Source of the DNA: Vairimorpha necatrix
Lineage: Eukaryota
Assembly (NCBI GenBank): GCA_036630325.1
Contig: CP142734.1
Coordinates: 868,001-932,000 of the forward strand
Length of the DNA stretch: 64,000 nt
Reading direction: 5' to 3'
Numbering within the stretch: position 1 is the first letter of the stretch; every line of letters begins with the position of its first letter. The translations under genes were made by a program, and so were the position numbers. The notes under the pieces were generated by a model that was given only the letters and a program-made list of their open reading frames with translations, was not told the DNA's origin and did not search any database. Shown here piece after piece: positions 1 through 49,621 of the stretch.

Positions 1-149
1 ACTTAAATAATTAAGATAACAAAAAAAAAATTTTACGTAAAACATTATAATAATATTGTTATGTGAGTATAAATACATAGACGATTCAGATAAAAACGAC
101 CTATTTTTATACAGCGACTTGCTTTCGCGTTTTGAATTTTTTATCATTA

Positions 150-240
150 TATCTTGTCATGGGACAGCTCTCCAGTAATCCTACGCCTACCCTGGAGGCC
201 AGAAATAATAGTTTATAGATATTCTCTTCTTTTTTTTAAT
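150..240 (+). mobile_element. Short fragment of the APE-type LINE seen at 54.7-60.3 kb
   Basis: GGGACAGCTCTCCAGTAATCCTACGCCTACCCTGGAGGCCAGA aligns by eye with 55683 GGGACAGATCTCCAGTGATTCTAAGATGACCCTGGAGACCATA. Boundaries are approximate. Confidence 0.45.
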
Positions 241-1260
241 CATCTCTAGAAAAGCATGAAGAAATCTAATAAACCTTTTATAGTAAAGATTCTTCGAGGA
301 CTGTTAAACATAAAATAGTCCACATATCTATTATTGTTTTTTTCATTATGCTTATTTTGTTTGTTTTTTGTGCATCACAATTTTAGTGTCAATATTATAT
401 TTTAATTTCTGAGTACCTTTTTATTAAATGAAGGATTTGTCTGCTACTAAATTCATGATTTTTCTTAGCGTTATATTTTATTGCATTAAAATATGTTACT
501 TGGCTTTTTTTCTGCGTTGTTGTAGTCAGAATTATTTTAAATTTTGCTTTTCTCATGGTGTCTTGCTTGAGGGGTAAAAACAATGATATTAAATTTTGGA
601 AAAATTAAAATGTTATTTAGCAAGAAAAAGTTGGCGATTAATATCATACATTAAATATTAAATAAACTATATTTTAAGATTTTTTATTGTTTTTAATATC
701 TAAAAATATTTTCAGTTTTTTTTACATGTGTAAAATATTACTTTTTAAGATTATTCTTTTTTTACATATATTGGTTTTATTAAAAAATCAGAATATTGAG
801 AACTTGACAGCCCATACAAAATATTTGACATCATATTAAACACATCTTTGTTTAAAGTTAAAAAATCAGCTAAATTAGCATAAAAAACAAATAAACATTT
901 AAAAACAAACATGGAAAAATTTTGTCTAGCTTTTGGTTTTGCGGCAATATAAATATTTGTAATTTCCCCACTCATTTTGACATAAAAATTTATTCAAATC
1001 AAAATTTTGTTTGTTATTAATCAAATTTTTAATAAAAATTGACATACTTCAAATTTCGAAAATTAATTTAGATATAATGATTACAAAAATTAGATAAGAT
1101 TAATTTAATTTTTTTTTTAAGTTTAATTTGCAGTTTGACAACTCTCTATTATTAGTTACATAGTACATCATATTAAAATCGATTCTTTTTGTCACGCATT
1201 GTTCAAAATTTATTTTTTTAATTTGTTTTGTATAAAAAAAAATTCTATTATCCCCCATTA

Positions 1261-2481
1261 ATGAATCAATTTTTTTTATTTTTATTCATCAACACATGTA
1301 TAAATACAGTTTCCATATGCATTAATAGTAAAAAGGATGAGAATATCTTGTACTTGGAAACGGACGAGGATGTAATAAAGACGCCTTCTTGTTCTTTTTT
1401 GTTATTGGAATATGAAACATTGAAAGATACAGAAAATTCTAACTGTTACAAGTTCATATCATGTGATGAAACTGATAATGAATACATCAATTCTGAATAC
1501 TATAAAAACAAAGCAAAAGAAGTACCCTTGGACTCAATAAATATAGTCGTTGATGTAAGGAAATTCATAAAAACATCATTTAATATAAATACACATAATA
1601 TATATAGGATAATAAAAAAGAATGCGATTGACAATGATAGTTATTGTTCAGATTATTTTCTTATGAACGATGATAAAAAATTTCATATAATTAATTTCTT
1701 TGCCCAATCGGTAATCAATGAACAGTTCGACGATTGTATTTTTGATGTACAAAAAAAAATGATCATTTTTGAAAATCATCTAAAAGAATTAAACTTTACA
1801 AAACAACAAGATCAATATCTCACAGAAGGTTACGCATACAATGTAAACATATTATCGGACGAATATACTGCAAAAAAAAAATTTGGAGGAGTTGAAAAAA
1901 AAATTTGTACTTGTAGTAAACAAAACAATAATAATGAATTTAAAAAAAAAGTATCATGGAAGAATAAAATAATTATAAATGGGCAAATATACGATCTACC
2001 GCGATACAAAAATCAAACAATAAATACTGAAGAACACCAGAAAAGACCTAAAGACATCGATCAAATAACTATTAAACATCAATATATGACTCAACTCTAT
2101 CCCGGAAACAAAAATACAGAACCAATCTACGAAAACATTAACGTGGAAAGTAATCGAAATCAAGCGAAATTAATTTATTGCGAAACAGACCAAAACATTA
2201 ATGAGAAAAATAACAGAAACACAAATGAACATAATTATTATAAAATGGAAAAGAACAAAAATAATATAGGTAATGAAATAAAAAATGAAGCATATAATGA
2301 GCAAAAAACAACGTCGGAACAGGAAACTTATATGCATAAGTACGTTCAACCCTCTGAAAATTTTTATGAAGACGGGGCTAAAAAATCTTGTTCTTTAAGT
2401 GGTTGTTTTGGAGGGAAGAAACTATTTAGTAATAAGAAAGCTATTTTAGATTATGATGGCGTTTATAAAAAAATTGAATGA
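1261..2481 (+). CDS. Lineage-specific, probably secreted protein with Tyr-motif-rich low-complexity tail; paralogue of 10402-11367
   Basis: Long ORF. ATG at 1261 follows CCCCCATTA, so it is the likely start rather than 1228. The N-terminus MNQFFLFLFINTCINTVSIC is hydrophobic. The N-terminal ~150 aa align with the 10402 ORF. Confidence 0.8.
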   Translation: MNQFFLFLFINTCINTVSICINSKKDENILYLETDEDVIKTPSCSFLLLEYETLKDTENSNCYKFISCDETDNEYINSEYYKNKAKEVPLDSINIVVDVRKFIKTSFNINTHNIYRIIKKNAIDNDSYCSDYFLMNDDKKFHIINFFAQSVINEQFDDCIFDVQKKMIIFENHLKELNFTKQQDQYLTEGYAYNVNILSDEYTAKKKFGGVEKKICTCSKQNNNNEFKKKVSWKNKIIINGQIYDLPRYKNQTINTEEHQKRPKDIDQITIKHQYMTQLYPGNKNTEPIYENINVESNRNQAKLIYCETDQNINEKNNRNTNEHNYYKMEKNKNNIGNEIKNEAYNEQKTTSEQETYMHKYVQPSENFYEDGAKKSCSLSGCFGGKKLFSNKKAILDYDGVYKKIE

Positions 2482-2878
2482 TTAAGATGTAATTATAAGA
2501 GAAACAATGAAAAAACGTTCCCAAAAAGTTTTATCATCTCCTGAAAGATTAAAATTCTCTTAATAAAAAACATAATTTTATAATCTATATTTAGTAATTG
2601 ATCAAAAAAAATTATATACCATATATTTTTTAGTTATATGGGTGTCTTTTATTTTGCCAAGGCAGTTTAGTTGATAAGTGTATGTAATATAATGATTCAA
2701 TTACATTTCTTATAGAACAAAAAAAAATATATCTAAATTTAAATATAGAAATGGTATGATCATAATTTGATCTTGATTAACACAGTAAATTTCATTTGAT
2801 TTAGTGTTTTGAAATATCGTATTTATTGTGTGTTTCTTCTTAAACTGGTCAAGAATCAAGCCACCTATTTATTGTCGC

Positions 2879-4617
2879 TGTTCGGAGCGATATCAAGGAA
2901 AATGCTTACTTTAGAATAGAAAAAAAATTTTACGGAGTGATGTTTCCTTAAAAATGCTTACTTTATATGATTAAAAAATATTGCAGAAAAAGATCGTTGG
3001 TATTAATTTAAAAGTTGTATGTTTAAATTTTTTTAATTTTAAGGGCATAAAAATAAAATTTAATAACAACAAAAGACAAGAAGTTTTTGTCTTTTTACAG
3101 AATGGTATTGTTTGGGGTGAAGTTAGTATTAAACAATAATAAGAATGTTTTAGAGCAAAATCAAGAAAATTTATTCATTTTGTGGATGTAATTAATGGTA
3201 TCACGGATCTCAGGGTGGGATTTAAAGTAAGTCTATATAGATCATTAAGATTCTTTCCACCAACGAGAGACGCTTCAAAATTGATCCACGTCTAAAATAG
3301 GCATGCGGGACGTGATAGATTGTTTTCATTTTTGCAAACAAAAGTCTTTGGCGCAACCCAAAAAGATATTCAGAGAGTTTTGAATAGCTGTGATATATGC
3401 CGAGCAAAAAGAAAGTTGGTAACTATATTAGTTATTAGACCATTGTTACAAAATATCCAAAAAAATATTTGTTGCTGACTTGATTATATTCCGAATATAT
3501 CTCGAACAAATGAAGCATATGAATGGTTATTTAGTATTGTAGATTCTTGCGCAAAATTTTTCGCACGGTAACACCGCTTTGATAAAACAAGTATTAGTGT
3601 ATGGAATGCTTTTTAAACATTATTTAGAACGTTTGGCTCTTGTTTAATACTTCATACTGATAACGGCAGAGAATTTGTAAATTAAGAACTCGTCGTTTTA
3701 TTTTAGAAATATGAAATATGATGTGTAAGGGGAGAGTTAGATGTCCATGGATACAAGAAATGATAGAATGATGCAATCGAACAAAAAGTGGATGTTTCAT
3801 GTACTCTTAGAACAAAAAATATTTTGAATCAATGGACCAGGGTATTAAAAGAAGTTACCTAGTCATATTATAATTAAACACACTCTACTACCAGACAAAC
3901 ACCATTTTCGTTAATGTTTGGTAGACTCAACGGGACATAATAGACAAGTCTCGACCACGGTATTCTATATTTGATTAATAGCGAAAATCTCTAATAAGAA
4001 TATAAGGACGAGGAACGAGCTGAAGAAAGTTTATCAGATGTTCTAGATTGTAATACTAATAAAGAAATTGCTCCTATATGCATGCAATGAATAGCACAAA
4101 CCTTATTTTTAATGAAGATTATCATGGAACAGCTAGAATTCATACACAAACTGCTACAGATAGAATGATATATGAAGTATGTTGAGAAATGATTTCTTAG
4201 AGTATAGATAGAAAATAGAGTTCTTATAAGAGCTTATTTGGTCATTAACGTTAATACTAAAGACATTATCTTCTTGAACATTTAGATGAAGAAGTCTATG
4301 TTGTAATAGACATAATACAAAATTTAATAAAGTGAAAACATACAGAAGATGATAATGAAATTATTATAGAAGAAATAAGAACAAAAAAGATTAAGTTTGC
4401 TTGGTGATAAAAAAAAGTACTAATTTTTTTTTATAATTTATTTTCTTCCTTTTTATTTTCCCTAAAATTATAAAAATAAAATGCAAACATACCACCAAAA
4501 TCTAGATATAATTTCGACATCCATCAAAGACGATTATTTATTTGTTCTTTTTTTTTCTGGTCCGCCTCTCATCGAAGAGTTTTATTGATTTTTTAACCTT
4601 GGATATCGCTCCGAACA
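2879..4617 (+). mobile_element. Degenerate Ginger/Tdd-like DNA transposon (Gypsy-like integrase with TIRs)
   Basis: TIRs TGTTCGGAGCGATATC(A/CA)AGG at 2879 and the inverse at 4597-4617 give TGT...ACA termini. Broken + strand frames encode an H2C2 zinc domain (IHV*NRHAGRDRL...CDIC), VADLI and LHTDNGREFVN. There is no RT and no visible TSD. Confidence 0.75.
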
Positions 4618-5517: not shown

Positions 5518-7530
5518 TGTAGGGGTTAGAACCCCTTGTAAATAAATGGTTAACATAGCGAACACATGGATGAACGGGGAAGCAAGAGAGTTCCGTAGTC
5601 AAGAGGCTAGAACATTAGAGAAAGAGGCAATTAGAATAAAAAAGAGATTAATGTTGGTATCTAAGGTTTTAAAAAATTGAGTGGAAAAATGTTATGGATT
5701 TTGCCTTCTTCTATTTACAGGATTATATTTTTGTGACGAAAGGAGAGCTGGGAAGAAATTTATGGAGTCTTACAAAGAACTGCAAGATTTTAGAGAGAGG
5801 TAGAAGAAAGACAAGTAATGTATAAAGAGATTGGAGATGGAGTGTATAAAGGGATTAGGGATGAAGTCTTTAACGAGATTAGGGATGAAAGAAAAGAGAA
5901 TCTTAAATTGTATAAGAAAAGAAGAAAAATCACAAAATGTTTTATATTTAAGAAAGCAGTCACTACGCTAGAGAATGTCATGAAAGTGCAGCTGGTCGAG
6001 AAAAGGAGAAAATCGAAAAGGAACTTGTTTTAGAGAAAGAACCTGTTGTCAAAGATGGAGGGAAAGGATTATAAAAATTAAATAAGTTAGAACAATTAAT
6101 TGACTAGTATCCTACAGTTTTTAAAGAATCAGAAGAAAAGATAAAATATCTCACATAGGGGAAGTGTAAATAAATACTAAACAAGGTGAAAAGGGGGCAG
6201 AACGTGTTATTCTACCTTAGGGAGTAATTTAAAATTACTTGATAAAGTTGAAAAAAGAGGGATTACAAGACGAACAGAAGTGCGTGGGGGTGTCCTATAA
6301 AAGCACTTTAAACCCCAAACAAGAATGTAAGATTAGTAAGTATTTTGAAAGCGTTTGACGATTTGGTTAAAAAGGACCCGTACGCTTGTCGTCAATTAGA
6401 CATATTATGAAGCCTCGCAGGTTTCGAAGGTATTTACAGTTATCGACTTAAGGTAAGGCTCTATCATATTGAGGAGCATCATAAGCACAAGACAGCATTT
6501 GAAGTGAATGTACGAGTATACAAATGGAATATATGATCATGGGGCTTGAGAATTCGCCTTAAATAATGTAGAGAGTTATGAACAAAATTTTAGACGAAAT
6601 CAGTGGTAAAGGCATAAGGTAAAGATGGATGATATAGTTGTTCATAGTAAAGACGTAAGAGTGCATGGCGAGTTACTAAGAGGATAAATAGAAAGTTTGA
6701 AGAGTTTGGGTTGTAAGTAAATCAACAAAAATACAATACAAAAAAGATAAGGTGATGTTGTTGGGAGTAATAATCATGGTGGGGCCATGGGACTGAATGA
6801 TACGAAAAAACAGGAGACACTAGAGTATAGAAAACCTGAGAATTTTAGATAGTTAAGAAGATTTTTAGTACTTACTGTTGGTTTAGAAACTTTATTGCTA
6901 TCTATGTGTATAGAACAGCAAGGCTTGCTGAGACTTTTAAGAAAGATGTTAAACGGAATTGGACGGAGGATATGGAAGGCGCTTCAAGTATATGAAGCAA
7001 GGCTTGAGGGATAATGAAAAGTTTAAGATTCTTAATGAAAAAAGCTATTTAGAGTAAGAATTGATGCGTATGATAAGGGGATAGAAGCAATTCTACTACA
7101 AGAAAATATAGAAGGGATGGATTCCTATCCTAGGGGGATCGAAAATGTTGACTCCTACATAGAGACGATATACGATAAGTTAGAAGAATATGTTGAAGGT
7201 GTGGAATAAAGAAGTTTTGAAGTGATTTGAGAGGAAAAAATTCCATTTGAATACGGAACATAAAGCGTTGGCAATGATCAGGAATAACCCGTACTTCAAC
7301 AATAACAGAATAAACAGATGAATAAAACAGATACAAGTATTTGTCAAAACAATAGAATATGTAAAAGAGAGTTGATGGCAGACGCAGATGCGTTGAGTAG
7401 ACAATATGATCAGGTAGAAGTTTTGGATAGACAGAAAGAAAAGGACAATAAGAGAAAAAAAAAGTAATTGAAAAACAAATATTAGGTAAAAAAATAAACA
7501 TATTTGTGATAAATAGGAAACATACAACAT
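5518..7530 (+). mobile_element. Decayed, 3'-truncated copy of mini-LTR Gypsy family 1
   Basis: 38-bp LTR at 5518-5555 (TGTAGGGGTTAGAACCCCTTGTAAATAAATGGTTAACA) followed by PBS-like TAGCGAACACA. It is colinear with the reverse complement of 11635-14709 through gag, RT and RNase H, with many stops and frameshifts. It ends before the integrase. Confidence 0.9.
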
Positions 7531-8554
7531 ACTTTATGAATAACCAATAAAAACTAAAACGGCGATGCTTTTTTCGTAACGATCAGTTATGGTCAGTTAT
7601 TATTGGTCAGACCTATATTATTTGCCTTAATTAGTTACTATGCAATAAAAATAAAGAAATTCCATGAACAACATGGTATATCGCTTTCACACTCAGAAAC
7701 ATTCATCCTTCTGTAACTCAGATAAGTCAAACTCTATTTATAACAATAAACAATCTATTTCTTCCATCTATCTTATTTCCGGATTTCACGGTACCCCAAC
7801 CCGTAGCATTATTGAATGCTTGCTTTCCACTAGCAAGCTCCCCGGTAAACAAGCCAAGATTTAAAATCCATTTTCGTTGATTTTCATTTTTTACACTAGT
7901 TAAATCCTTTTCAGGAGATTTTCTAACGATTTTTTGTTCTGTTTTCCCTTTTTACTGTAATGATAATTAGAAATTTAATAGTCGCTTATAATAGATTACA
8001 TGTAAATTTCTTTTCTTGTATATCAGATCTATTCTCGTCCATAGTTCTCGTGCTTCGTTTCTTTGACAGTATTTTAATAATTATAGATTTAATAGTAGAC
8101 CTCTAGCCTCAGTAATTAGAAACCTTTGGGCAAGCGTTAGTTCTTTGCAGTACGTAATGTCTTTACACCGTATATGCATATTGTGGGCGTTGTGTCAGAA
8201 GTTAAATTTTTTGTTTAAACACAAACCTTATCTGGGTTTAAGTCTTGACTATATATAAATAAGTTATAAATATGTGTATGTATTTGTTTATTAGATGTTT
8301 ATATTTACTGCGGACATCTTGAAAAATTATTTTATGAGGCTATTATTGGGTTTATATTATTCTTCAATTTACCTCCACTGCCGCGCACTCTATTTGGTCA
8401 CACCACCTTATAGTTACCTCTACTATGTTCTTGGTTCCAGACCCTATTTCGGCAAGGCCCCGACGGTGTTCAAAGGAGATGCTCTCAGTGTCTTCTTTAT
8501 GTTTTCATTTGGATGTAAGCCTCGGTACTAGTTGATGGCATTAATATATTTGCT

Positions 8555-9135
8555 GTGGTATTTTGTCGCACTTCGTCCCACGCCATGAAGTATGGTATTA
8601 TCTAATTTTGCATTTGTACGTTAGGCCCAATTCATTTGCTAAGATAACAACTTTCTGAATTTTAACTGTTCTACTTTTTGTAAATTATTCTGGGCACAGT
8701 TGTACAAACATCATCATTAAAATACAGGAGAAAAAAGATATTCTACAAAAATATATATAATTTTTCTGGTATAATATTCGGCTTATTAATTACTTTTCAC
8801 AAGATACGCTTACAGTCTCATCTGGCAGTTTCAGGACTTCCTTCTGAGATTCACTCATTGGGCTCTCGAAGGCCCCTTCCTGATCTGTATCAAGCCCATG
8901 TCTGGCTGACATAGTTAGGCTTTCTAAAGTCATTTTAAGGACTCTTGACTGTATATATGCTTCCGTTCTGGGTTCTAGTCTAAGCACTTTGATATGCGTA
9001 CGGTGAAAATTAGTTACTATTCCATCCCACGTCATCACATAAGGAATAATTTTCGGCTTGTATTTGTAGAGAGAAGCCACAAGATTTGCGAGCAAGTCGT
9101 ATTTATGTTTTTTTTCTGTTTCTACTGCATGGAGA
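8555..9135 (-). mobile_element. 3' fragments of an RLE-type (R4/NeSL-like) non-LTR retrotransposon
   Basis: Minus frame EKKHKYDLLANLVASLYKYKPKIIPYVMTWDGIVTNFHR is typical of the C-terminal restriction-like endonuclease region. A second, more degenerate copy of the same motif lies at about 8555-8700. Confidence 0.7.
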
Positions 9136-11367: not shown

Positions 11368-11634
11368 ATCAAAATACCATATAATAAACGTAAAAAACAC
11401 CCTATTTTTTATCAACTGATTTTTTTAATATTTGTTTTCTTCAAATCTTCTCAGCTGTACAAGAGCTGAATAAAGGGGAAAAGTTATATAGTTTCTCTTA
11501 TAGTAGAAAAATATGGTGTCATGCTCATGTTTTCAAAAAGGATTTTTGACAAAGCCCCAATTTAAACATAAAAATTGTTTGTAAATAAAGATATATTTTG
11601 CGTTTTTATTTTGATATCTAACTCAAGCATATAA

Positions 11635-11672
11635 TGTTAACCATTTATTTATTAAGGGTTCTAAACCCTACA
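11635..11672 (-). repeat. 3' LTR (38 bp) of family 1 element
   Basis: TGTAGGGTTTAGAACCCTTAATAAATAAATGGTTAACA on the minus strand. It contains the ORF stop codon and AATAAA. Confidence 0.9.
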
Positions 11673-14600
11673 TCCCCCCTCCAGACGGGTAGTCTCTCCA
11701 TCTTCTAAACAACTCTTCCTTATCTCTTTCAAATCATAATGCCTCTTTTTAACAATTTTACCATCCAGTAGTCTCACAATATATGAATCATTTTCACTTA
11801 TAGCTACGATCCTTCCGCGACCCGTGAATCTTCCCTTGTCTGTTTTCGCACGTGTACCTAAATTTTCTCTCCTAGCGATTCTTACCTCTTGGCCTACTGT
11901 AAATGTCTCTCTGTGTCTTCTCTTGAACCGACCAGCATATTTTCCATTTTCATCATTTTCAATTATAACTTCAGCAGTTTGATCTCTCCACGCTTCCATC
12001 GGCGTACATTTTATTGCTGTATGTAGTGTATTATTATATCCTTTGATTGCTCTTTCTATCTTTTCAGAAATATTCCCATCATTTTGCTTTATCAATGTCT
12101 CTCTTATAGTTCTGATGCATCTCTCGATTCTACCATTACTCCTATGAGCTTCTAAGCCCACTTTCCTATGTTTAATATCATTAATACTACACCATTCTTT
12201 AAATCTATTACTTACAAACTCTTTTCCGTTGTCTGTCACATATTCCTCTGGAAATCCATCTTCCCTTATCCACTTTTGTAATACCTCTATAACTTCACTA
12301 CTCTCTTTACATCTCAAATTCGAACCCCACAACCTTCTAGTAAAGTAATCAATACCCAGTAACACATACCTATTCTCTCCACCTATGTCCATTAAATCCA
12401 ACGCCACTTTCTCCAATTTCTTTCTAGTTACTACGAAATCACATCCTCCTGTGTTTTTCCTATTGTTAATCCCACATATTTCACAATTCTTAATTACCTT
12501 ATTAATATGATCTTTCATACCAGGCCAATACCATCTTTGTTTAATGTTATAATAAGTGCCTTTGACACCTCTATGGTTTAACTCCTCATGTACTCTTGTT
12601 ATTTCATGTTCTCTACTATCTAGGCTCAATATCTCTTTCACCTCACCTGTGGAAAATTCCCAATACTGTTTACCGTCCTTTTCTTTAATATGTTTCTGCT
12701 TTTTTCCTAAAATTTGTTTTTCGATCACTTCTTTTCTCCTGTTGTCCTTTTCTTTTTGTTCATCCGAAACTTCTACCTGATCATACTGCCTGCTTAACGC
12801 ATCTGCATCTGTCATCAACTCCCCTTTCACATACTCTATTGTAAAGTCAAACTCTTGTATCTGTTCTACCCATCTGTTTATTCTGTTATTATTGAAGTAT
12901 GGCTTATTTCTGATCTCTACTAATGCTTTATGATCCGTCATCAAATGAAATTTCCTTCCTCTCAAATCACTTTCAAACTTCTTTATTCCAAAAAACACCG
13001 CCAACATCTCCTTCTCACTTATCGTATATCTTCGCTCGGTAGGAGTCAACATTTTCGATGCCCATTGTATCGGAATCCACTCACCCTCTTTATTTTCTTG
13101 TAATAGAATTGCTCCGATCCCCGTATCACACGCATCAGTTCTTACTCTAAATAGCTTTTTTCCGTCCGGAATCTTCAACTTTTTCATATCTCTCAAGCCT
13201 TGCTTCATATCCTCAAAAGCTCTTTCCATATCCTCCGTCCAATTCCACTTAACATCTTTCTTTAAAGCCTCAGTAAGCCTTACTGTTCTATACGCATAGT
13301 TGGGAATAAAGTCTCTAAACCAACCAGTTAGTCCTAAAAATCTTCTTAACTCTCTAACATTCTCAGGTTTTCTATATTCCAATGTCTCCTGCTTTTTAAT
13401 CTCATTCGGTCCCATGACCTCCCCATTAATTGTTACTCCCAGCAACATCACCTCATCTTTTTTGTATTGTATCTTTGTTTGGTTTATTCTCAACCCACAC
13501 TCTTTAAACTTTTTAATTACCCTCTCTAGTAACTCGTCATGCACTCTTACGTCTTTACCATGAATAACTATATCATCCATATATACTTCCACGCCTTTAC
13601 CTCTGAATTCATCTAAAACTCTGTTCATTACTCTCTGCATTATATGAGGCGAATTCTTAAACCCCATAACCATACTATTCCATTCGTATACTCGACCATT
13701 CACTTCAAATGCTGTTTTGTGCTTATGGTGCTCCTCAATCTCAATATGATAAAACCCTTCTTTTAAGTCGATAACCGTAAATACTTTTGACCCCTGTGTG
13801 GCTCTCATAATATCCTTAATTAACGGTAGTGAGTACGGGTCCTTGTCAACCAAATCGTTTAACGCCATCAAATTGCTTACCAATCTTACGTCCCCATTTG
13901 GTTTTTCAAGTGCTCTTATTGGACTCCTCCACTCACTTTTGGAACGTCTTATAACCCCTCTATTTTCCAACTTATTCAAGTACTCCTCAAATTTCACCCT
14001 AAGGTAGTATGGCACATTCTGCCCTCTTTTCACAACCTTTTCACCTTGCTTAGTATTTATTGGACACTTCTCTCCTGTGAGATATTTTATCTTTTCTTCT
14101 GATTCTTTAAAAACTTCCGGATACTTTTCAATTAAATTTTCTAACTTATTTACTGTTTTACATCTTTTCCCTTCATTGTTGATAATTGGTTCTTTCTGTA
14201 AAACTTGTTCCTTTTTAATTTTATATTTTTCCCTACCAGCTACACTTTCATGACATTCTCTAGCGTAATGCCCTTCTTTCTTACATATAAAACATTTTGT
14301 AGTTTCTCTGATTTCTCTTCTTTTCCTATACATCCTAAGATTTTCTTTTCTTTCGCCCCTAAACTCTTTCAACACTTTATCCATAATCTCTTTAATCATT
14401 TCTTGTCTTTCTTCTGACTCTCTCTCAAATTCTGCTCCTTTTTGTAAGCCTTTATAAATTTCCTCCCAACTGCTCCTTCCGTCACAAAAATTTTCAAAAA
14501 TATAATCCTGCAAGTTCGCAGATGCCAAATCCATAACATCTTTCCACTCAACTTTCTCAACTTTCAATATTAACTTTAGTCTCTTATCTATCCTAATTGC

Positions 14601-14681
14601 CTCTTTCTCTAATGTTCTAGTCTCTTGACTACGGGACTCTCTTGTTTCCCTGTTCATCCTTGTGTTCGCCATGTTAACCAT
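11661..14681 (-). CDS. Single polyprotein: short Gag-like region with CCHC knuckle, reverse transcriptase, RNase H, integrase; no recognisable protease
   Basis: CFICKKEGHYAREC knuckle. RT motifs VIDLKEGFYHI, MGFKNSP and YMDD. RNase H motifs TDAC, EKEML, TDH and DALSR. Integrase motifs HEELNH..CEIC, DLMD, TDNGKEF and SNGRIER. The RT-RH-IN order is Gypsy-type. Confidence 0.95.
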   Translation of the reverse strand: MVNMANTRMNRETRESRSQETRTLEKEAIRIDKRLKLILKVEKVEWKDVMDLASANLQDYIFENFCDGRSSWEEIYKGLQKGAEFERESEERQEMIKEIMDKVLKEFRGERKENLRMYRKRREIRETTKCFICKKEGHYARECHESVAGREKYKIKKEQVLQKEPIINNEGKRCKTVNKLENLIEKYPEVFKESEEKIKYLTGEKCPINTKQGEKVVKRGQNVPYYLRVKFEEYLNKLENRGVIRRSKSEWRSPIRALEKPNGDVRLVSNLMALNDLVDKDPYSLPLIKDIMRATQGSKVFTVIDLKEGFYHIEIEEHHKHKTAFEVNGRVYEWNSMVMGFKNSPHIMQRVMNRVLDEFRGKGVEVYMDDIVIHGKDVRVHDELLERVIKKFKECGLRINQTKIQYKKDEVMLLGVTINGEVMGPNEIKKQETLEYRKPENVRELRRFLGLTGWFRDFIPNYAYRTVRLTEALKKDVKWNWTEDMERAFEDMKQGLRDMKKLKIPDGKKLFRVRTDACDTGIGAILLQENKEGEWIPIQWASKMLTPTERRYTISEKEMLAVFFGIKKFESDLRGRKFHLMTDHKALVEIRNKPYFNNNRINRWVEQIQEFDFTIEYVKGELMTDADALSRQYDQVEVSDEQKEKDNRRKEVIEKQILGKKQKHIKEKDGKQYWEFSTGEVKEILSLDSREHEITRVHEELNHRGVKGTYYNIKQRWYWPGMKDHINKVIKNCEICGINNRKNTGGCDFVVTRKKLEKVALDLMDIGGENRYVLLGIDYFTRRLWGSNLRCKESSEVIEVLQKWIREDGFPEEYVTDNGKEFVSNRFKEWCSINDIKHRKVGLEAHRSNGRIERCIRTIRETLIKQNDGNISEKIERAIKGYNNTLHTAIKCTPMEAWRDQTAEVIIENDENGKYAGRFKRRHRETFTVGQEVRIARRENLGTRAKTDKGRFTGRGRIVAISENDSYIVRLLDGKIVKKRHYDLKEIRKSCLEDGETTRLEGGCRV

Positions 14682-14709
14682 TTATTTATTAAGGGTTCTA
14701 AACCCTACA
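14672..14709 (-). repeat. 5' LTR (38 bp) of family 1 element
   Basis: Identical to 11635-11672. It contains a CCC motif, a 6-bp hairpin and the ORF ATG at 14681. Confidence 0.9.
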
Positions 14710-15257
14710 TATAATATGTTGAAGGAGTTAACAAGCATAGGGGGTTTATTTATTAAATATTATAAAGACACCAACTTATTATTTTGTTTTATGTGTATAC
14801 ATGTTTAAGATTAGTAATGTTTTCACAACAAGGATCTTGATTAACTTCAATACAATTAATAATCTATAGAAATTATTAAATTATCTGTATAGATTAATAA
14901 GTACAAAATATTGTTGATTACGACTTTGCAAGTTTTCATTTAGTACTTACAATTGATAATTTTTGGAAAGCTGTCCATAATTGAATAAACATTATATGTA
15001 AATACAACAAATATCTGACTTTTTTAGCTATAAAAGATTCTTATTCCATGTTTTATTTTTTAAAATGGCTTTGTTTTTAATGTATTTAAAGTATTACTTT
15101 AAAGTTAATTATTGCTGTTTCTCTAATAAAACGTGACTTTGTATCAAAAATGTCAGTACTTTTCGATGATATATTGTAGAACAGTGCCAGAAAAATTCAC
15201 CGAAAAATTAAAATATATATTTTTCATAGGGAAATTTATATATTTAATAAAAATTTT

Positions 15258-16425
15258 GGCGCTACTAGGAAAATCGCCCCCCCCCCCCACTAAAAAAAAA
15301 TAATTGAAAATTTATGGAATTTTTATCAGATAACTATGCATTTTTGTTATTGTAGAGAAAAGCACGAAGAATTGAACATTTTTTACATTGGCAATGTCTC
15401 TTACGCCAAGAAAAAATTTCTAAAACTTTAGCGATACGGTCATGATTTAATCCACTTCTTTTTCTATAATCCTGTTTTAAGTGGGACTTTAAATTTTCAA
15501 TCTGATTTGTATGTCCTCCCTTGCTGTTTACAAATCATTTGCTATGATTTACTATCTCATGCTCAGATCCAAAATTGGCCACTGCTTTAGGGTATGATGG
15601 GTATTCATCAGTAACAAGAATAGTTCCAGGAAGTAAATGGGGTTTAAACGCTTCTAGTAAAGTTTCATGCTTTCTGTTAGAAATTAATGAAACAAAAAAA
15701 ATAGTTTCATCACCTTCTACAACTCCTCCAAGTATCCACTGTATATTAGGAGTATCGTCGTGTAGAGATGACGGAATTTCAATCACTAAGCCATTGCATA
15801 TTGCAGTTTCATCGACCTGTACCCTTGTGTTTTCTCCCCCTATCTGTTCTATATCGGAAGGAGTCTCGCTTATAATGTCAATTAGAATGTTTTTAAATTC
15901 AATGTACGTCGACTCGGCTATTTTACAAAAATTGATAGCTTGATAATTTGAGTAAGAAAAGATCCAACAATATAAACACCTCAGAATCTTTTTGAATTCG
16001 ATAGTCAATTCATTAAATTTTGTGCTTTTTTTCAAACTACATTTTCTTTTGCACTTTTTTATTGTACATCTGTACCCCTTCCATAATAAATGAAGAAACA
16101 CTAGCAATTGACATGTTTCCATGACATGATTTTGAGACACATGGAATGGTAGACTTTATTATTCCCAATTCTACCAAAAGGGCAATTGCGAGATCATTAT
16201 TTTGGAAATAGGATTCCAAAGATCAAGTTCTCCTACCTTTTCCAGTATTCTTCCTAACATGAAGGGTATGAAAAATGTGAAAAAAAGACCATTGCTTTGA
16301 AAATCGCCCCCCCCCAGAAAAAAATATGCAAGAAAGTACAAAATCGAGAGATTTTTTTAATTTTAAAGAAATGATAATTTTTTTCTATGCGTGTTTTAGT
16401 AGGGAGCCATTTTCCTAGTAGCGCC
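15258..16425 (-). mobile_element. Merlin (IS1016/ISXO2-like DDE) DNA transposon, pseudogenised
   Basis: TIR GGCGCTACTAGGAAAAT and 8-bp TSD AAAATTTT. Transposase motifs VQVDET, WILGGV, VTDEYPSY, VNHS and HTNQIE. It has frameshifts and a stop at 15535. Confidence 0.92.
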
Positions 16426-16457: not shown

Positions 16458-19400
16458 TGTATCTATTTATCATAATTGGGGATCAAAAATATCAGAATAT
16501 ATAACATCCCCCTCCAAGAAGGTTAGTCTCCTACATCACCATTAACCCTAAGCAGATTTTTCAAGTCATAATGTCTCTTTTTAACATATCGCCCATTAGT
16601 AGCTTCACAACATACGAGTCCCCAGGGCATACCACCACTATAATACCTTCGTCTAAAAACCTTCACTTTTAATATTTATTTCATCCTTTGATGTTTTCTT
16701 TCTTAGCTATCCTTACTCGTTGTCCTTCAATAAACCGCTCTCTATATCTTCTAACAAATCTTTTACTGTAGTCTCCTTCTGGTCCATTTAATATCATCAC
16801 TTTCCTCGTATTGTCTTTTACCGCTTCATTGAAAGTACTTCTTATACCTTCGTGGTAACTATTATTATAAATTTTAAAGCTTTCCATCACTATGTCTTCA
16901 AAACTCGCCGTCTCTTTACTCATTTTCAATATTAGCTCTCTAAGCGTTCCTAAAACTCTTTCAACTCTACCATTGCTTCTATGAGACTCGACACTCACCT
17001 TATTATGGGTAATATCCAATTTTCTACACAAATCCTTCAAGTCAACATTATCAAATTCCCTCCCATTATCCGTTATTATTTCCTCCGGCCTCCTGCCATT
17101 TATACATAAGTTCTCAATAAATTGGGCCACAGAGGATCTCTTCTTATCGTATAATACACATCCCCACGCTATCCTCGTATGGTAATCTATCGCAACTAAT
17201 ACATATTTGCCCTTATCTCTAAAATCAATTAAATCTAACGCTACTTTTTCTAAATACCTGCTTGTAGCAACAAAATCACATCCTCCAGACCTTTTCCTAT
17301 TGTAAATTTGACACTCCTCGCACCTTTTTATCATTTTCCCTATATCTTCTTTTATTCCTGGCCAATAATAATCAAACTTCATGGCATAATACATGCTTCA
17401 TAGTCCTCTGTGTCCATGCTCTTCATGATAACGTCTCATAAGCTCATCTCTTTCTTTTATTTTAGGAATCAATGCTTTCCTCCCCGAATCAAAATTCCAG
17501 TATTCTTTACCGTCTATTGTCTCGACGTGCTTCAACCATTTACCTTCAATTTGACGCTCACTTCTTTTTTTATCATTTCGTTTCTTGGATCAACCTCCTC
17601 GTGTATCCTACTCAAAGCATCCGCCACGACCATATGTTCTGGTTTCCTGTAATCTATTTCAAAGTCAAATTCTTGGATCTTTTCAATCCATCGATTAATT
17701 CTATTATTATTAAAACACGGCTTTCTTATTATTTCCGCCAATGCTTTGTGATCCGTTTCTACTTTAAATTTTCGTCCTCTTAACTCATACTCAAATTTCT
17801 TTATTCCCCAATATATGGCATACATTTCCTTTTCACTTATACCATATCTAGTTTCCGTCGGGGTGAATTTCTTCGATGCCCATTGTACTGGCACCCACTC
17901 TTCTTTATCATTCTTCTGCATGAGTACTGCACCCATTCCTATATTGCTCGCGTCAGTTCTTAATAAAAATTCCTTGTCATAGTTTACAATTTTCAACTTA
18001 CTCATACTTCTTAACGTTTCCTTCATATTTTCGAACTCTTTATTCGGGTCATCAGTCCAATTCAATACTTTACTTTTACCTTTCAAACTTTCAGTCATAT
18101 ATAATGTCTTCTCCGCATAATTATTAATAAATCCTTGAAACCATCCACTCAGTCCTAAAAATCTTCTTATGTCCGACACATTCTGCGGCGTTGGAAACTC
18201 TAGTGCTTCGTTTTTCTTGATTTCAGACGGCATCATATCATCTCCGTTTAATGTAACTCCCAATAACTTGACTTCCTTTTGGCAATACTGAATTCTCCTT
18301 GAATTTATCCGCATATTATTCCGTTCTAACAATTTCATCGCTTCTACAAATAATTTATCATGTTCTTTTCTAGTCTTCGCATGAATCACTATATCATCCA
18401 TGTATACTTCTATTTTACCACCCAAATCGTTTTTCAAAAATCTTATTCATAATTCTCTGCATGATCTGAGGCGAGTTTTTAAACCCCATGACCACACTAT
18501 TCCACTCATATACTATCTTATCAAACTCAAACGCGGTTTTATGCTTATCTTGCTCTTCTATTTGATTCCTTAAAAGGCCTCCTTAAGATCTATAACACTG
18601 AAAAATACTGACCCTTGCGTGTTCCTTATGATATCCCTAATGTTCATAATTCATAAGGGTCTTTCTCCACTAAATCATTTAATGCCATGAGATTGCTAAC
18701 CAGTCTTATACTTCCATCTGGCTTAACTAAAGCTTTAATCGGATTTCTCCATTCCGACGTCGATCTTCTTATGACATTCCTTGTAACTAACCTCTGAATA
18801 TATTTTCTCAGCTCTTCTTTATGCGCTTGTGGCACCTGCTGACCTTTCCTTACAACTTTCTTGCCTTCTTCAGTTATTATTCTGCATTTTTCAATTTTAC
18901 AATATCTTATTTTCTCTTCTTCGTTGTCTATAACGTTCCTAAACCTCTTTCTCATGTCTTCTAATGTTAGACCGTTCTTTTCTACCTCATCATAACATCT
19001 TTTATTTCTTGTCTTCCATTCTTGTTTCTTTTGTCTTTTAGCATCCCATGTGTTCCTATAAGTTCTTTCATCACAGCTACTGCTACCTTCTTTTTTAATC
19101 TTCTCACATTCGTCTTTATTCTTAAGATTTCTATATCTATAATAACACATCAGACTCTTATGTCCCATTCTTCAACAATTATAACATCTCATTGTTCCTC
19201 TCTTTTCAAATATTCTTTCCGCTCTACTAATATTTCTAATCTCCTCTGCCACCATCTTTGTGACCTACTCAATCATCCGTAATCTCATATCCCTTTCTCC
19301 TGTACTTTAACCAATTCCTCTAATTTGGTTTCCATAACTTTCCAATGATCTCCAATCTAAATATTCTTAACCATAAATTCTTTCAACTCATCAGTTCCAA

Positions 19401-19595
19401 GATCAAAAATCTCCTTCTTTACATTCTTCTCAAAATCATAATCAGACAATACTAGTCCATAAACAATCCTCTTAAACTCTTCTAATAACCTTCTGGCCTC
19501 TTGACCACAGCCAACACTTGTTAGCTCACGATTCGGTATCGCCCCATGTATTTATTTATCATAATTGGAAATCAAAAATATAAGCATATATAACA
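16458..19595 (-). mobile_element. Full-length, decayed miniature Ty3/Gypsy element, family 2 (49-bp LTRs)
   Basis: LTRs at 16458-16506 and 19547-19595 (5 mismatches), TSD TATTC, PBS TGGGGCGATACCG and PPT GGAGGGGGA. Frameshifted gag-knuckle, RT, RNase H and integrase frames correspond to ORFs 18644, 17532 and 16681. Confidence 0.93.
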
Positions 19596-27165: not shown

Positions 27166-28170
27166 GGCTAAAGTGCACTATGGGAATATTTTTTGAACTA
27201 GGGTTTTTTTATTTTTTTTGCCCGTTTTTGAAAAATGGAGGAAGAAATCAAAACAAAAGAAGAATTAGAAATTACATATAATGAACTGATAAGAGAAAAA
27301 ACATCTAATATTTGTGATCAATGTGGAGGTAAAATACGTAAAGTAAGTAAGAAGGAGTATTTACTAACCTGGACTTGGAAGGGATGTCGAAAGACAATTT
27401 CTTTTTGGCATGATTCTTTCTTTAGTAATTACTAACTTTGTCATTTACTAAAATTACAAATACTTTATCTGTAGATTCTTGGGTATCCCCGTAAGTTTTT
27501 TATCAAATTTTACGTTATTTGAAAAAACTATATCTACAGTATTAAAAAAACTAAAAGAAAAGAATATTTACGATAAGTATTTGTCATCAATGGCCATTAT
27601 AGGCGGAGAGGACACAATAGTAGAATTTGATGAGACAAAGATAGGAAAAAATAAAAACTAACGAGGCAAGATAGTGAAAGGATTTTGGAATGACCGAACG
27701 TACAATGAAACGTAAAACAATACTAGTACAATCAAAAAAAGAGATAAAAAAACTCTAACAGAACTTTTATTAAAATTTGTAATAGAAAAAATATTATACA
27801 TAGCGACATGTGGAAATCCTATCATTCTTTAGGTACTTTATTTAGCCAACACCATATGGTTATCCATACATTACACTTTAGAGACCCAATCACGGGAGTT
27901 CATACCAATACCATAGAAGATAATTGGCGTTCTCTAAAAAATTTTATACCTAATAGAAACAGATCAGCCAATAGCGCAAAACTATATCTGTTTAGGTACG
28001 TGCTCAATAGAATTTCTTCTACTTTAGTCTTTGCTGCTTTATTAAATCTTTTATTCTACTTGTTAATTTTCTTCTTCCTCTCTATCTTTCTTCCTCCATT
28101 TTTCAAAAAAAGGGGCAAAAAAAAATAAAAAAACCTAGTTCAAAAAACATTCCTATAGTGCACTTTAGCC
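27166..28170 (+). mobile_element. Merlin DNA transposon, pseudogenised
   Basis: TIR GGCTAAAGTGCACTAT(G/A)GGAAT and 8-bp TSD ATAATATG. Fragments CDQCG, IVEFDETKIGK, SDMWKSY and GVHTNTIE. Confidence 0.92.
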
Positions 28171-46475: not shown

Positions 46476-49400
46476 TGTGATATATTTGTATAATTTCTAT
46501 TCCCTATTAAGACAAATAAAGACATAAGGGCGATACCGAATCGAAAGTTTAAAAGTGTGGACTGTGGTCTAGAGGCCAAAAAGCTATTAAAGGAAGTTAG
46601 AAGAATTATCTATAGGTTAGAGATGGAGGAATTAGAATTCAGTATGTGGAAGCAGAGAATATTTATCGAAGGACGTGAAGAAATAAAAAATTCTATGGTA
46701 GAAAGAATTAGTAAAGAGGACGAATATTATAAAATAATCGAGAAATTGGAGGAGGAAATGTTTAGAAAAGAAAGAAGAAGAAAATAGGAGAGAACTTATG
46801 GAGGCTATAAGTGAGAATGTTATAGAAAGCGTGAGAAAGAAATGCAACAGAAAGATTTAGTTTTAGGAATCCAGTAAAGATTTATGAAGGAATAGGAATT
46901 GTTTTAATTGTAACAAATTTGGCCATATGGCTAGATCTGCAATGTAGGAAGGAAAAATAACGGGAAAATAATAAAAGTATAATCCGTACTTAAAGTTAGA
47001 CGAAAGTTGCAGTCGTAGTAGCAGTAATGATAGAAAAAAATATAAACCAAGTGCAAATACAAAACGAATTAAGTTAAAGCAATATAATAATAGTGATAGA
47101 AGACATAAAGAAAGAATATATGCGAGCAATAAAGAGACGAAAAGAAGATTACTGAAGAGGGAATTTACGTTGGAAGATCTCAAAGCGGAATATGAAGAAG
47201 TTTTTAAACAAGGAGATGAGGTTATAAGTTATTGTACATTAGAGAAGTGTAAGATAGATACTCCAGAGGGTAAGAAGATAGTCAGAAAGGGACAGACGAT
47301 CCCACAGGCTTTGATCAAACAGACTGAGGAATATATTAATGATTTAGAAAATAGAAAAATTATAAGAAGATTGTCATCTTAATTTACAAAACTCAATAAG
47401 AGCGATACTTACCCCACGGTATAGTAAGAGTAGTTAGTAACTTTATAGGGTTAAATGCTTTAGTCGAGAAAGACTCGTATGAGCTAACGAATATCAGGAA
47501 AATAATAAGAGCTACCCAAAAGTCGATAATATTTACTGTGGCTGATTGCAAAGAAGCATTTTGCCATTTTGAAATCGAAGAAAAAGATAAACATAATATG
47601 GCGTTGAATTTAATAAAAAGTTTACGAATGGAATAGTATGGTGATGGGATACAAAAATTCCCCACAGATACTACAGCGAACGATGAAAACGATTTTTGAG
47701 GATTGCACAGAAAAAGGCGTTGAGGTATACATGGACGATATAGTTATACATGCCAACAAATTACGTATACACGATGAACTAGTAAGAGAGGTTTTAGAAA
47801 GAATTCAGAGAAATAAAATATTAAAATACGGGTTAGACAAGCGGAAGTAAAACTATTAGGTGTGACGCCGAATGGAACAGACATGAAGGCCGACGAAATA
47901 AAGAAAAATGGAGCCTTGGAGTATCCAGATCCATAAACTTTGACGGAATTAAGAAGATTTCTAGGATTTACTGGGTGGTTCATACCATTATAAAAGATTA
48001 TGACGGGTTGACGTTGAAAATGACGGATAGTTTGAAGAAAAATGGCAATTCATGGAAATTAACGGAAGAGATGAAAAAGGAATTTACTGGAATACAAAAA
48101 TGTGTTAAGAAATATGGGAAGACTAAGATTGTCGGACTATAATAAGGAGTTCATACTAAGAACAGACGCTAGCAATTTGAGATTGGATGCGGTGTTACTT
48201 CAGAAGAATGAGAGTGGAGAATTGTTGCTATACAATAGGTATCTAAAAAGCTAACACCTACCGAAATAAGATATGGAATATCAGAAAAGGAAATGCTTGC
48301 GATATATTGGGTCATTGATAAATTTAAATACGAGTTAAGAGGTAGAAAATTCAAGATAGAAACGGATCACAAAACACTGGTGGAGATAAGAAACAAACCG
48401 TTCTTCAATAATAACAGAATAAATTTACAATCGAAAATATACATGAATATGTTTTTAGTATTGAATATAAAAAACATGATGATATGGTGGCAGCAGATGC
48501 GTTGAGTCGAATAAACATGGAAAAGGATATTAATCAAATGAAAAATAAAGAGCGAACAATCAAGCAAATAGAAGGTAAATGGAAAGCAATATTGGCAATT
48601 TGACTCAGGACGTAAAGTTGAAATACCACCTGAGAATATAAGGAGACAATTAATCCAAGAATATCATGAAAAAGTAGGCCACAGATGCATGACAAGTGTT
48701 TATTATGGAATGAGAGAAGAATACTATTGGCCAGGAGTAAAAAAAGAAATAAACGAGGTTAAAAACAGTGTCAGAAATGCCAGATATATAACAGAAAAAA
48801 TATGGGTGGTCGTGAATTTGTAGATACGTCGAGATACCTAGAGAAGGTTGCATTAGATTTGATAGACTTCAGAAATGAGAAGAAATATGCCTTAGTTGCT
48901 ATAATTTATTTTACACGTAGAGTATGGGGAGTAGTTATAAATAACAAGTCAAGTAATAATGTTGTTGGATATTAAAAAAAATTATGTGAGCAAGGGAAGA
49001 ACCCGGAAGAAAGCATTACAAATAACAAAAAAGAGTTTATTAACTTGGAATTTAGAAAATTATGCAGAGATCTGGACATAATACACGACAAGTAAGTATA
49101 GAAGCGCATATAAGTAACGAAAAAGTAGAGCGTGTTATAGATACTCAGAGAGAAAATATTATAAAGTCGGATGCGGAAACTTTTGAAGGTAAAAAGTGCG
49201 ACAAATATAATCAGAGCTATCATACAGGAATAAAATGTACACCAATAGATGCGACCGAAGATAAAACTGGAGACGTAATGCTTGTAAATAGCCCTATAGG
49301 GAAATATTGCAATACGTTTAGAAAAGGAAAGATTGAAAAATTTAGTAAAGAACAATTGATAAGAATATCTAAACGTTTTTTTTCGCAGGAGTTAATAAGT

Positions 49401-49621
49401 ATGAGAAAGGAGATTTTTGGATACAGGGAAAATTGTCGAAAAGTGTGAAAAAAATTCTTATATTGTAAAACTTAGTAATAGTAGGCTTGTGAAAAAGAGA
49501 CATTATGATCTGAAAAGTATGCTTGGTATAGATGTGAAAATTGGATGAGACTAACCGTCTTGAGGGTGTGTGTGTGATATATTTGTATAATTTCTAACCC
49601 CTATTATGATAAATAAAGACA
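46476..49621 (+). mobile_element. Full-length, decayed miniature Ty3/Gypsy element, family 2-related (49-bp LTRs)
   Basis: LTRs at 46476-46524 and 49573-49621 (4 mismatches), TSD TATTA and PBS-like TAAGGGCGATACCG. Fragments CFNCNKFGHMARSA, MGYKNSP, YMDD, TDH and integrase. Confidence 0.92.

Follow-up and report, generated by a model that had tools for sequence, protein, structure and literature searches.

A Ty3/gypsy-type retrotransposon of Vairimorpha necatrix whose 38-bp long terminal repeats hold the start codon, poly(A) motifs, and a host-type start-proximal motif

The 64,000-nucleotide (nt) stretch of the Vairimorpha necatrix genome analyzed here (contig CP142734.1 of assembly GCA_036630325.1, positions 868,001 to 932,000; hereafter the window, in whose own numbering all positions are given) contains an intact, recently inserted 3,075-bp long terminal repeat (LTR) retrotransposon of the Ty3/gypsy type. 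This element, element A, occupies positions 11635..14709 on the minus strand and is bounded by two identical LTRs of 38 bp, in which a C-run of the kind that precedes host start codons, two overlapping AATAAA motifs, and the start codon of the single open reading frame (ORF) are packed together. Textbook LTRs range from ~100 bp to several kilobases, each with a promoter, a strand-transfer repeat, and a poly(A) site. We consider it probable that the mini-LTR consists of the U3 and R regions built on the start and stop grammar of host genes, with little or no U5, in an intact Ty3/gypsy-type element.

RESULTS

An intact element with 38-bp terminal repeats

On the minus strand, positions 14709 to 14672 read TGTAGGGTTTAGAACCCTTAATAAATAAATGGTTAACA and run directly into TGGCGAACACAAGG. 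The 38-nt sequence is present in two exact copies in the window, both on the minus strand (5' LTR, 14672..14709; 3' LTR, 11635..11672), where none was expected from 100 shuffles with up to 3 mismatches allowed. The direct repeat was detected as 40 nt because one base of the target-site duplication (TSD) and one base of the polypurine tract (PPT) and primer-binding site (PBS) coincide with its ends. The repeats end in TG...CA (TGT...ACA) and are flanked by the TSD TTATA (5' copy, 14710..14714; 3' copy, 11630-11634; minus strand). Duplications of 5 bp flank all three full-length elements of the window, TTATA for A, GAATA for C, and TATTA for D (the latter two are described below), with a chance probability of 0.0022 each. 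LTRs ending in TG..CA and a 5-bp TSD are also found in Ty3.

TGG abuts the 5' LTR, and the PPT, GGAGGGGGGA (11673-11682, minus strand), adjoins the 3' LTR. The latter is kept in element C and in a relative from another genome contig, L001, and is present in decayed form in element D. The single ORF encodes Pfam reverse transcriptase (RT), RNase H, and integrase domains. No solo LTRs were found in the window. The 38-nt repeat, the TSDs, and the recurrence of the layout in relatives are beyond chance, and the reading of these repeats in the initial annotation of this DNA as LTRs, here complete and real LTRs of a retrotransposon, is borne out by exact repeats, TSD, and polyprotein domains alike.

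Overlap of signals within and around the LTR

The six sequence features that the initial annotation had listed are all present on the minus strand, with coordinates and reading frame checked. LTR bases 4 to 18 form the palindrome AGGGTT-TAG-AACCCT (14692..14706), whose 3' arm contains CCC at bases 15 to 17 (14693-14695). Eleven nucleotides separate this CCC, described as lying 12 nt before an ATG, from the first codon of the ORF, ATG1 (bases 29 to 31, 14679..14681). Between them lies AATAAATAAA (bases 20 to 29, 14681..14690), which is two overlapping AATAAA motifs (bases 20 to 25 and 24 to 29) whose final A also opens the start codon.

The ORF (11661..14681, minus strand; 1,006 codons) thus starts at LTR base 29. 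Its codon 4 is a second in-frame ATG, ATG2 (14670..14672), composed of the last A of the LTR (base 38) and the TG of the PBS, so that the protein begins MVNMA. This junction ATG is automatic, because ...CA abuts TGG. The ORF then reads through the putative PBS, TGGCGAACACAAGG (14658..14671, translated (M)ANTR), and, at its other end, through the PPT and the block preceding it (11673..11696 together, translated ETTRLEGG). It ends ...LEGGCRV* at base 12 of the 3' LTR, with the stop codon TAG (11663-11661) in the loop of the palindrome. Translation of both PBS and PPT, a start codon in one LTR, and a stop codon in the other therefore stand as originally described.

Relatives in the window and beyond

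Three relatives within the window were located by tblastn and blastn. Copy B (5518..7504, plus strand; 5' LTR, 5518-5555) is a decayed, 3'-truncated member of the same family with 80% nucleotide identity to A; its LTR matches that of A at 34 of 38 positions, and its PBS has TAG in place of TGG. The copy stops abruptly near 7504, without a 3' LTR (adjoining sequence, 7505-8700, plus strand). Elements C (16458..19595, minus strand; 3,138 bp; LTRs 16458-16506 and 19547-19595) and D (46476..49621, plus strand; 3,146 bp; LTRs 46476-46524 and 49573-49621) each represent an older related family and have a broken ORF. Their 49-bp LTRs are 89.8% (C) and 91.8% (D) identical within each pair.

A pattern scan of genome contigs gave 26 pattern matches, one of which, L001, was confirmed. 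L001 (NZ_JBOFRG010000340.1, 3,024 bp) is filed under a Clostridium sp. metagenome-assembled genome (MAG) and encodes a polyprotein 67% identical to that of A. Its 3' end reads GGAGGAGGGGA, followed by a 38-nt TGT...ACA unit with GGG, the stop codon TAG, CCCC, AAATAAATG, and ...AACA. L001 probably represents eukaryotic (microsporidian) DNA that was wrongly binned with a bacterial genome. Another such protein, P0051, bears the same Clostridium label.

A protein search revealed a clade of ~1,000-amino-acid (aa) relatives. Fifteen of them, 976 to 1,039 aa long, lie on contigs of only 3,035 to 3,283 bp, so that near-total coding density is found clade-wide. The named polyprotein relatives come from Nosema granulosis, V. 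necatrix, and Enteropsectra breve; the link of the clade to microsporidian groups is one of similarity, the best named matches being microsporidian.

Elements of this kind have been cataloged before. Supplementary Table S1 of Parisot et al. 2014 (PMC4202319) gives 50 complete LTR-element consensuses of Anncaliia algerae, mostly with LTRs of 105 to 272 bp and total lengths of 3.6 to 4.3 kb; the shortest LTR in the table is 45 bp, so that the 38-bp LTR of A is shorter than any of them. By our own count of the table, the ORF start coordinate falls inside the 5' LTR in 43 of the 50. One entry, "Aalg retro L" (retro L), has a 50-bp LTR, an ORF at 32-3049, and a total length of 3,127 bp. By eye, its LTR starts with TGTTATATAT, holds AAATAAATA-CCC-ATG, and ends in GTTAACA followed by TGGCG; as in A, the junction ATG shares the reading frame of ATG1 (MKQVVNMA), and the hairpin UAGUUC-AAGA-GAGCUA comes next. 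Unlike in A, its stop codon lies, by the table coordinates, 28 nt before the 3' LTR. The combination seen in retro L, namely a single ORF, ~3.1 kb in total, LTRs of at most ~50 bp, and an ORF start inside the LTR, is shared by A, C, and D. The layout recurs in all relatives with DNA inspected (B, L001, C, D, and, by eye, the retro L consensus), and all related LTRs contain a C-run, an ATG, and AATAAA within their final ~25 nt.

The main text accompanying the table uses the word "promoter" a single time and contains no instance of "protease," "PBS," "polypurine," "primer binding," "start codon," or "overlap"; the signals thus appear to have been tabulated there rather than analyzed. The literature searched, other than the PMC4202319 tables, contained no discussion of mini-LTRs or of protease loss in microsporidian elements, and the literature searched on minimum LTR size contained nothing on microsporidia. 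Element A is a new and more extreme member of a cataloged but unanalyzed microsporidian clade.

Host start and stop signals in the LTRs

The window is gene-poor and has a G+C content of 29%. A CCC or CCCC lies 0 to 10 nt before the ATG in 9 of the 14 non-element ORFs of at least 120 aa, one of the nine being a Merlin transposase, as opposed to 114 of all 2,227 ATGs (5.1%; nominal binomial P = 4e-9). The CCC before the ATG in the LTR is, as these counts support and as the initial annotation had proposed, the host's own start-proximal signal.

This signal has counterparts in other microsporidia. In Encephalitozoon cuniculi, 5' untranslated regions (UTRs) are described as shorter than 7 nt, with a CCC-like motif immediately before the ATG and an AAATTT-like element upstream (Peyretaillade et al. 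2009, PMC2803860); GGG is given as an alternative start-proximal signal (PMC2803860; likewise PMC4072689), and roughly half of the genes have AAUAAA close to the stop codon (PMC2803860). For Nosema ceranae, Cornman et al. 2009 (PMC2685015) report that a C-triplet occurs at most 15 bp from the ATG, peaking at -10 to -3, that a T-run lies just upstream, and that TATA peaks near -27.

The longer LTRs of the related families contain more of these elements. The LTR of C, with ...TATATAT...ATATTTTTGATCCCCAATTATG, presents the full published host start grammar and resembles the N. ceranae ribosomal gene upstream sequences in Table 1 of PMC2803860; that of D reads TATAAT...CTAACCCCTATTATG. The LTRs of C and retro L both begin with TGTTATATAT and have a TATAWAW match ~27 to 30 nt before ATG1. 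In the LTRs of A and L001, only 14 nt precede the C-run, and no TATA was found in them. The TTATA TSD of A puts a TATA 29 to 32 nt before ATG1, near the -27 peak of N. ceranae. The A/T-rich target sites of these elements (TTATA, GAATA, and TATTA) might thus supply the upstream promoter element lacking in the 38-bp LTR, an idea to which copy B, with no TATA in its 5' flank, does not conform.

These data bear on the possibility that the mini-LTR has no promoter of its own, in which case transcripts would come from flanking host DNA, the whole 38 bp would be R, and CCC and AATAAA would be present only as the host-type translation and 3'-end context of the ORF. The brevity of the A-type LTRs upstream of CCC and the absence of TATAWAW from that segment fit such an arrangement, the TATA in the TSD of A would suggest dependence on the target site, and for E. 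cuniculi both polycistronic RNAs and overrunning transcription have been documented (PMC2803860). We nevertheless regard it as improbable. Strong-stop DNA ending in flank sequence absent from the 3' end would impair strand transfer, TATATAT, a T-run, and CCCC stand at host-like spacing in the 49-bp LTRs of C and, by eye, in the LTR of retro L, the 5' flank of B offers no TATA, and three families have spread in the host genome.

Stop-proximal signals are shared as well. AATAAA overlaps or abuts the TAA stop codon in the host genes UBC (39832-40401, minus strand) and DMC1 (40513-41523, minus strand); in A, it starts 7 nt past the stop codon, resembling both. In host genes, promoter and poly(A) signal stand at opposite ends, whereas the LTR holds both in 38 bp, and this one unit must serve as promoter at one end of the element and as terminator at the other.

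Start codon choice and the length of R

The distance between the last C of the C-run and the final LTR base is 21 nt in A, 20 nt in B, L001, C, and D, and 19 nt in retro L (20 to 21 nt if counted from the first CCC of the run). LTR length varies only upstream of the C-run (14 versus 25 to 27 nt), and the ATG follows the run after 0 nt in retro L, 4 nt in C and D, and 10 to 11 nt in A, B, and L001. A unit of fixed length starting at the promoter C-run fits what would be expected of R plus any U5. AATAAA changes its place within this unit: it lies before the C-run in retro L, between C-run and ATG in A, B, and L001, and inside codons after the ATG in C and D. With a background of 0.003 per nt per strand, ~0.1 occurrence is expected per LTR, and the motif was found in five of five families.

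We next considered where translation starts. Among the 52 best proteins (query included), 21 start with M-x(2-6)-[HYDN]-M-[AG], 7 start with M-[AG] (one of which, P0034, is by eye an internal RT Met), 20 start otherwise, mostly because they are truncated or extended, and 4 have no start Met. An in-frame ATG1 upstream of the junction ATG was therefore found in 21 of the 27 homologues reaching the junction, against 261 of 2,227 window ATGs (11.7%) that have an in-frame upstream ATG with no stop codon between, a comparison whose P value is nominal since the homologues are related. The residues between ATG1 and ATG2 are not conserved. The junction Met is preceded by H, Y, D, or N (NAC codons) and followed by A or G (GCN or GGN), as ...NACA|TGG predicts. 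From this pattern, ATG1 in the LTR is probably the start codon used. If so, the transcription start site (TSS) would lie upstream of ATG1, and R plus U5 would measure at least 10 nt in A and up to 19 nt in retro L. Overall, 10 to 21 nt is more likely for R plus U5 than a few nucleotides.

The initial annotation had concluded that R can be only a few nucleotides long, which is too strong given a C-run 19 to 21 nt from the LTR end and the retention of ATG1. Its strict form would have transcription begin from or after AATAAA, with ATG2 as the real start codon and an R of at most 9 nt. That would keep AAUAAA out of the RNA 5' end in A-type LTRs, ATG2 does stand in an ACATGG context, and 6 homologues are annotated from the junction ATG only. 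If ATG1 is used, however, AAUAAA cannot leave the RNA, because C, D, and their relatives carry AATAAA after ATG1, inside codons (MINKD and MENKY). The frequent retention of ATG1 speaks against the strict form as well, as does the position of ATG2, 20 to 21 nt from a C-run that in host genes lies 0 to 10 nt from the ATG used. A homology of at most 9 nt would also fall below the shortest retroviral R cited (16 nt, see below). We therefore find the strict form very unlikely.

At the 3' end, AATAAA ends 9 nt (A) or 4 nt (C and D) before the end of the LTR. Since cleavage is placed about 20 nt downstream of AAUAAA (PMC2803860), the RNA would end at or beyond the LTR, leaving U5 minimal or absent. 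Replication would not suffer from an RNA that ends past the LTR, since copying leaves out whatever lies 3' of R.

Palindrome of the LTR

The pairing of the palindrome is weak by comparison with shuffled sequence. The hairpin of A has a folding energy of -5.9 kcal/mol (z = -0.24), and an equal or better fold was obtained from 78 of 200 dinucleotide shuffles; the values are -8.8 kcal/mol, z = -0.71, and 49 of 200 for B and -4.6 kcal/mol, z = -0.09, and 83 of 200 for L001. No equivalent was found in the 49-bp LTRs of C and D or in the retro L consensus. The LTR hairpin was thus rejected as a significant fold. Of the 6-bp hairpin of the initial annotation, the palindrome stands, but its fold is no better than that of shuffled sequence and it is missing from the families with 49-bp LTRs.

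That GGGTT-TAG-AACCC is nonetheless a functional RNA or DNA structure central to the LTR, serving as terminator or in packaging or dimerization, is suggested by its maintenance in B through T8>G plus T18>C, which yields the -8.8 kcal/mol fold, and by L001, which keeps merely GGG...CCC. Given the folding statistics, its absence from C, D, and retro L, and the known role of GGG-like motifs as an alternative start-proximal signal (PMC2803860, PMC4072689), we give this view very little credence. The pairing may instead be a by-product of GGG-like and CCC-like motifs in A/T-rich sequence.

Cis signals inside the coding sequence

TGG abuts the LTR in A and C and is mutated in B and D. "MANTR/K," the translation of TGGCGAACAC..., stands at the N termini of P0003 to P0006, P0008, and P0031, with "MANTT" in P0011; relatives keeping MANTR/K are only about 50% identical overall, so 12 to 13 nt of the putative PBS are conserved at the amino acid level. 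C and D share GGGCGATACCGAATCG at the PBS. Relatives reading MGAIPN suggest TGGGGGCGATACCGAAT as the functional PBS of the C/D type. Compared with these, C (PBS region 19530-19546, minus strand) appears to have lost one G, with a frameshift of its ORF as the consequence, and the PBS of D (46525-46543, plus strand) has TAA in place of TGG. Both old copies, C and D, have lost function at the primer site in addition to their broken ORFs. The TGGGGGC of the C/D type resembles the tRNA-Pro PBS of murine leukemia virus, a lead to a possible primer.

The window contains no tRNA genes by ARAGORN and no Rfam matches at the gathering threshold. The complement of the first 11 bases of the PBS has just two matches in the window, the PBS of A and, at 1 mismatch, the PBS of B. 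Self-priming of the Tf1/sushi type was rejected, the PBS complement being found nowhere in the LTR or elsewhere in the window besides the PBSs.

Two further elements lie in coding sequence. The first is a 5-bp hairpin, UAGUC-AAGA-GACUA (14618..14631, minus strand), in the gag coding region 41 to 54 nt past the PBS start. It appears, with an AAGA or UAGA loop, in the minimum-energy folds of A, B (about 5597-5610, plus strand), C (about 19493-19506, minus strand), and D (about 46565-46578, plus strand), each folded separately, and by eye in retro L, where the reading frame differs. All 20 of 20 cells are paired, with one AU<->GC compensatory pair, against 20 to 55% when the alignment is slid; among 500 shuffles, with n = 4, the observed value was attained by 81. 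The gag hairpin is a candidate packaging or primer-contact signal. The second is the block of 14 nt before the PPT (11683-11696, minus strand; GAGACTACCCGTCT, GAGACTAMCCKTCT), which is nearly invariant in the alignment of A, L001, C, and D, families whose protein identity is only 35 to 50%. It corresponds to the ...ETTRLEGG found at the C termini of many homologues. Past ETTRLEGG, the TGT(T) of the LTR is read in any of the three frames (C.., ML.., or DVV..).

A polyprotein without a recognizable protease

By Pfam, the 1,006-aa product contains a CCHC knuckle (aa 129-144), RT (259-418), RNase H (481-611), and integrase zinc and core domains (690-839), in the order of Ty3. The nucleocapsid part of Gag is this single knuckle, preceded by only ~128 aa, and the same holds across the clade of ~1,000-aa relatives. 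The catalytic residues (YMDD, RNase H D516, the integrase HHCC, and D762/D817/E853) are invariant in an alignment of 26 full-length homologues. Ty3 of Saccharomyces cerevisiae (7q5b, 4ol8) is the best solved-structure match, profile positions 205 to 658 aligning to Ty3 Gag-Pol residues 560 to 1012 (E = 2e-113). The ~560 Ty3 residues before this alignment point comprise Gag3, protease, and the junction, as opposed to ~205 profile positions in A.

No aspartic protease was found between Gag and RT by Pfam, also when aa 100-270 were searched at a cutoff as loose as E <= 10. A protease family is listed for none of the 51 best polyprotein matches, whereas it is for more distant, animal-type ones, and the motif D[ST]G[AS] is absent from 49 of 52 proteins. 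The distance from the knuckle to RVT_1 is 115 aa in A but about 383 aa in the protease-bearing P0075, and the N terminus of Ty3 RT aligns ~30 residues past the knuckle of A. By these sequence comparisons, a retroviral-type aspartic protease is missing, and the protease-less form is clade-wide over several microsporidian genera.

Ty3 itself has separate, frameshifted GAG3 and POL3 ORFs, 340-bp LTRs, and an untranslated PBS and PPT. Other microsporidian Ty3/gypsy elements, like A, have one polyprotein ORF; the Nbr elements of Nosema bombycis, unlike A, are described as Gag-protease-RT-RNase H-integrase (PMC2474625, citing Xu 2006).

The missing protease and the loss of most of Gag raise the possibility that element A is non-autonomous and that larger Ty3/gypsy elements of the host genome that encode a protease mobilize it in trans, its mini-LTR working only with the particles of those elements. 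Larger microsporidian elements do exist, as the 3.6- to 4.3-kb A. algerae consensuses and the N. bombycis elements attest. Still, the invariance of the RT, RNase H, and integrase residues together with the intact ORF points to selection acting on the enzymes that the element itself encodes. Polyproteins without a protease also recur across genera, and no protease-bearing LTR element was seen in the window. We thus think dependence on larger elements unlikely.

Other mobile elements and genes of the window

Merlin (IS1595-like DDE) transposase ORFs or fragments lie at 62543-63493 (minus strand), 15535-16122 (minus strand), and 27748-28125 (plus strand). The first of these is intact and has AAATTTGACCCATA immediately before its ATG, so a DNA transposon, too, carries the host start signal. 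A MULE transposase fragment (34037-34654, minus strand) adjoins a FLYWCH zinc-finger ORF (35090-35518, minus strand), and a separate RVT_1 RT fragment (58201-58662, plus strand) has no match to the mini-element protein. The DMC1/Rad51 ORF has its best named matches in N. granulosis (74%), Vairimorpha apis (73%), and Astathelohania contejeani (69%), which, together with the named polyprotein relatives, points to a microsporidian host near Nosema/Vairimorpha. The DMC1 ORF has no CCC before its first ATG, and its true start may differ.

DISCUSSION

We favor an organization of the mini-LTR in two parts. Bases 1 to ~17, ending at CCC, would be U3 and would act as a host-type start-proximal core promoter. 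The RNA would start within the 11 nt separating CCC from ATG1, and the remaining 21 nt or fewer would be R, carrying the start codon and used in minus-strand transfer. In the 3' copy, AAUAAA just past the stop codon would direct cleavage at or slightly beyond the LTR end, with U5 minimal or absent. A tRNA pairing via its 3' end with TGGCGAACAC... in A, or with TGGGGGCGATACC in the C/D type, would prime the minus strand, and strong-stop DNA would be only about 10 to 21 nt long. The PBS, the conserved gag hairpin, and the PPT with its upstream block are in coding sequence because there is no untranslated leader or trailer to hold them. The proposal of the initial annotation that U3-R-U5 functions are compressed by borrowing host grammar is thus retained insofar as host start and stop signals are reused, but U3 plus R with little or no U5 is the likelier division.

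Several observations weigh against this organization. The 11-nt gap between CCC and ATG in A exceeds all nine host gaps, which range from 0 to 10 nt, and the 5' UTRs of Edhazardia aedis average 180 nt (PMC2474625), so that short leaders are not phylum-wide. TSS and poly(A) site are placed by analogy with the host genes of other microsporidia, and the PBS is assigned from its position, its TGG, and its conservation. The constant spacing of 19 to 21 nt comes from five families only, which share ancestry. Because AATAAA is common at 71% A+T and the LTR families are kin, recurrence among families is not independent evidence, and the P values are nominal. Finally, without a protease, the polyprotein may go unprocessed, and the element may be non-autonomous.

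Retroviruses with a short R have LTRs of more than 1 kb with distinct U3, R, and U5, unlike the 38-bp LTR of A, in which U5 is perhaps missing. The R of mouse mammary tumor virus, 16 nt, is the shortest retroviral R cited in PMC6088434, and minus-strand transfer works there with ~16 nt of homology. By this analogy, an R of 10 to 21 nt would be at the known limit but not implausible.

A more far-reaching proposition is that these are the most reduced self-encoding LTR retroelements known, with a U3 of ~17 nt, an R of ~10 to 21 nt, no U5, a poly(A) site in flanking DNA, cis signals (PBS, packaging-type hairpin, and PPT) embedded in the ORF, and an unprocessed, protease-less polypeptide. We advance it tentatively, as possible but rather doubtful when all its parts are taken together.

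An intact element with 38-bp LTRs, among the most compact of its kind, asks how far LTR functions can shrink, and the clade of 3.0- to 3.3-kb relatives shows that element A does not stand alone. Should the start be set by the C-run, R would be an A/U-rich RNA segment of ~10 to 21 nt, at or below the shortest retroviral R cited. The missing protease bears on whether an LTR retroelement can function as an uncleaved polyprotein. Standard LTR finders use a default minimum LTR length of 100 bp. Were the minimal organization true, it would explain why such programs miss a clade widespread in microsporidia, whose members are likely mis-annotated as "LTR-less" pol genes, one relative being filed under a Clostridium MAG. 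It would also mark how short, in practice, an LTR and its R can become while still supporting retrotransposition. The mini-LTRs are, moreover, a compact natural test object for the promoter and 3'-end signals of unculturable microsporidian parasites.

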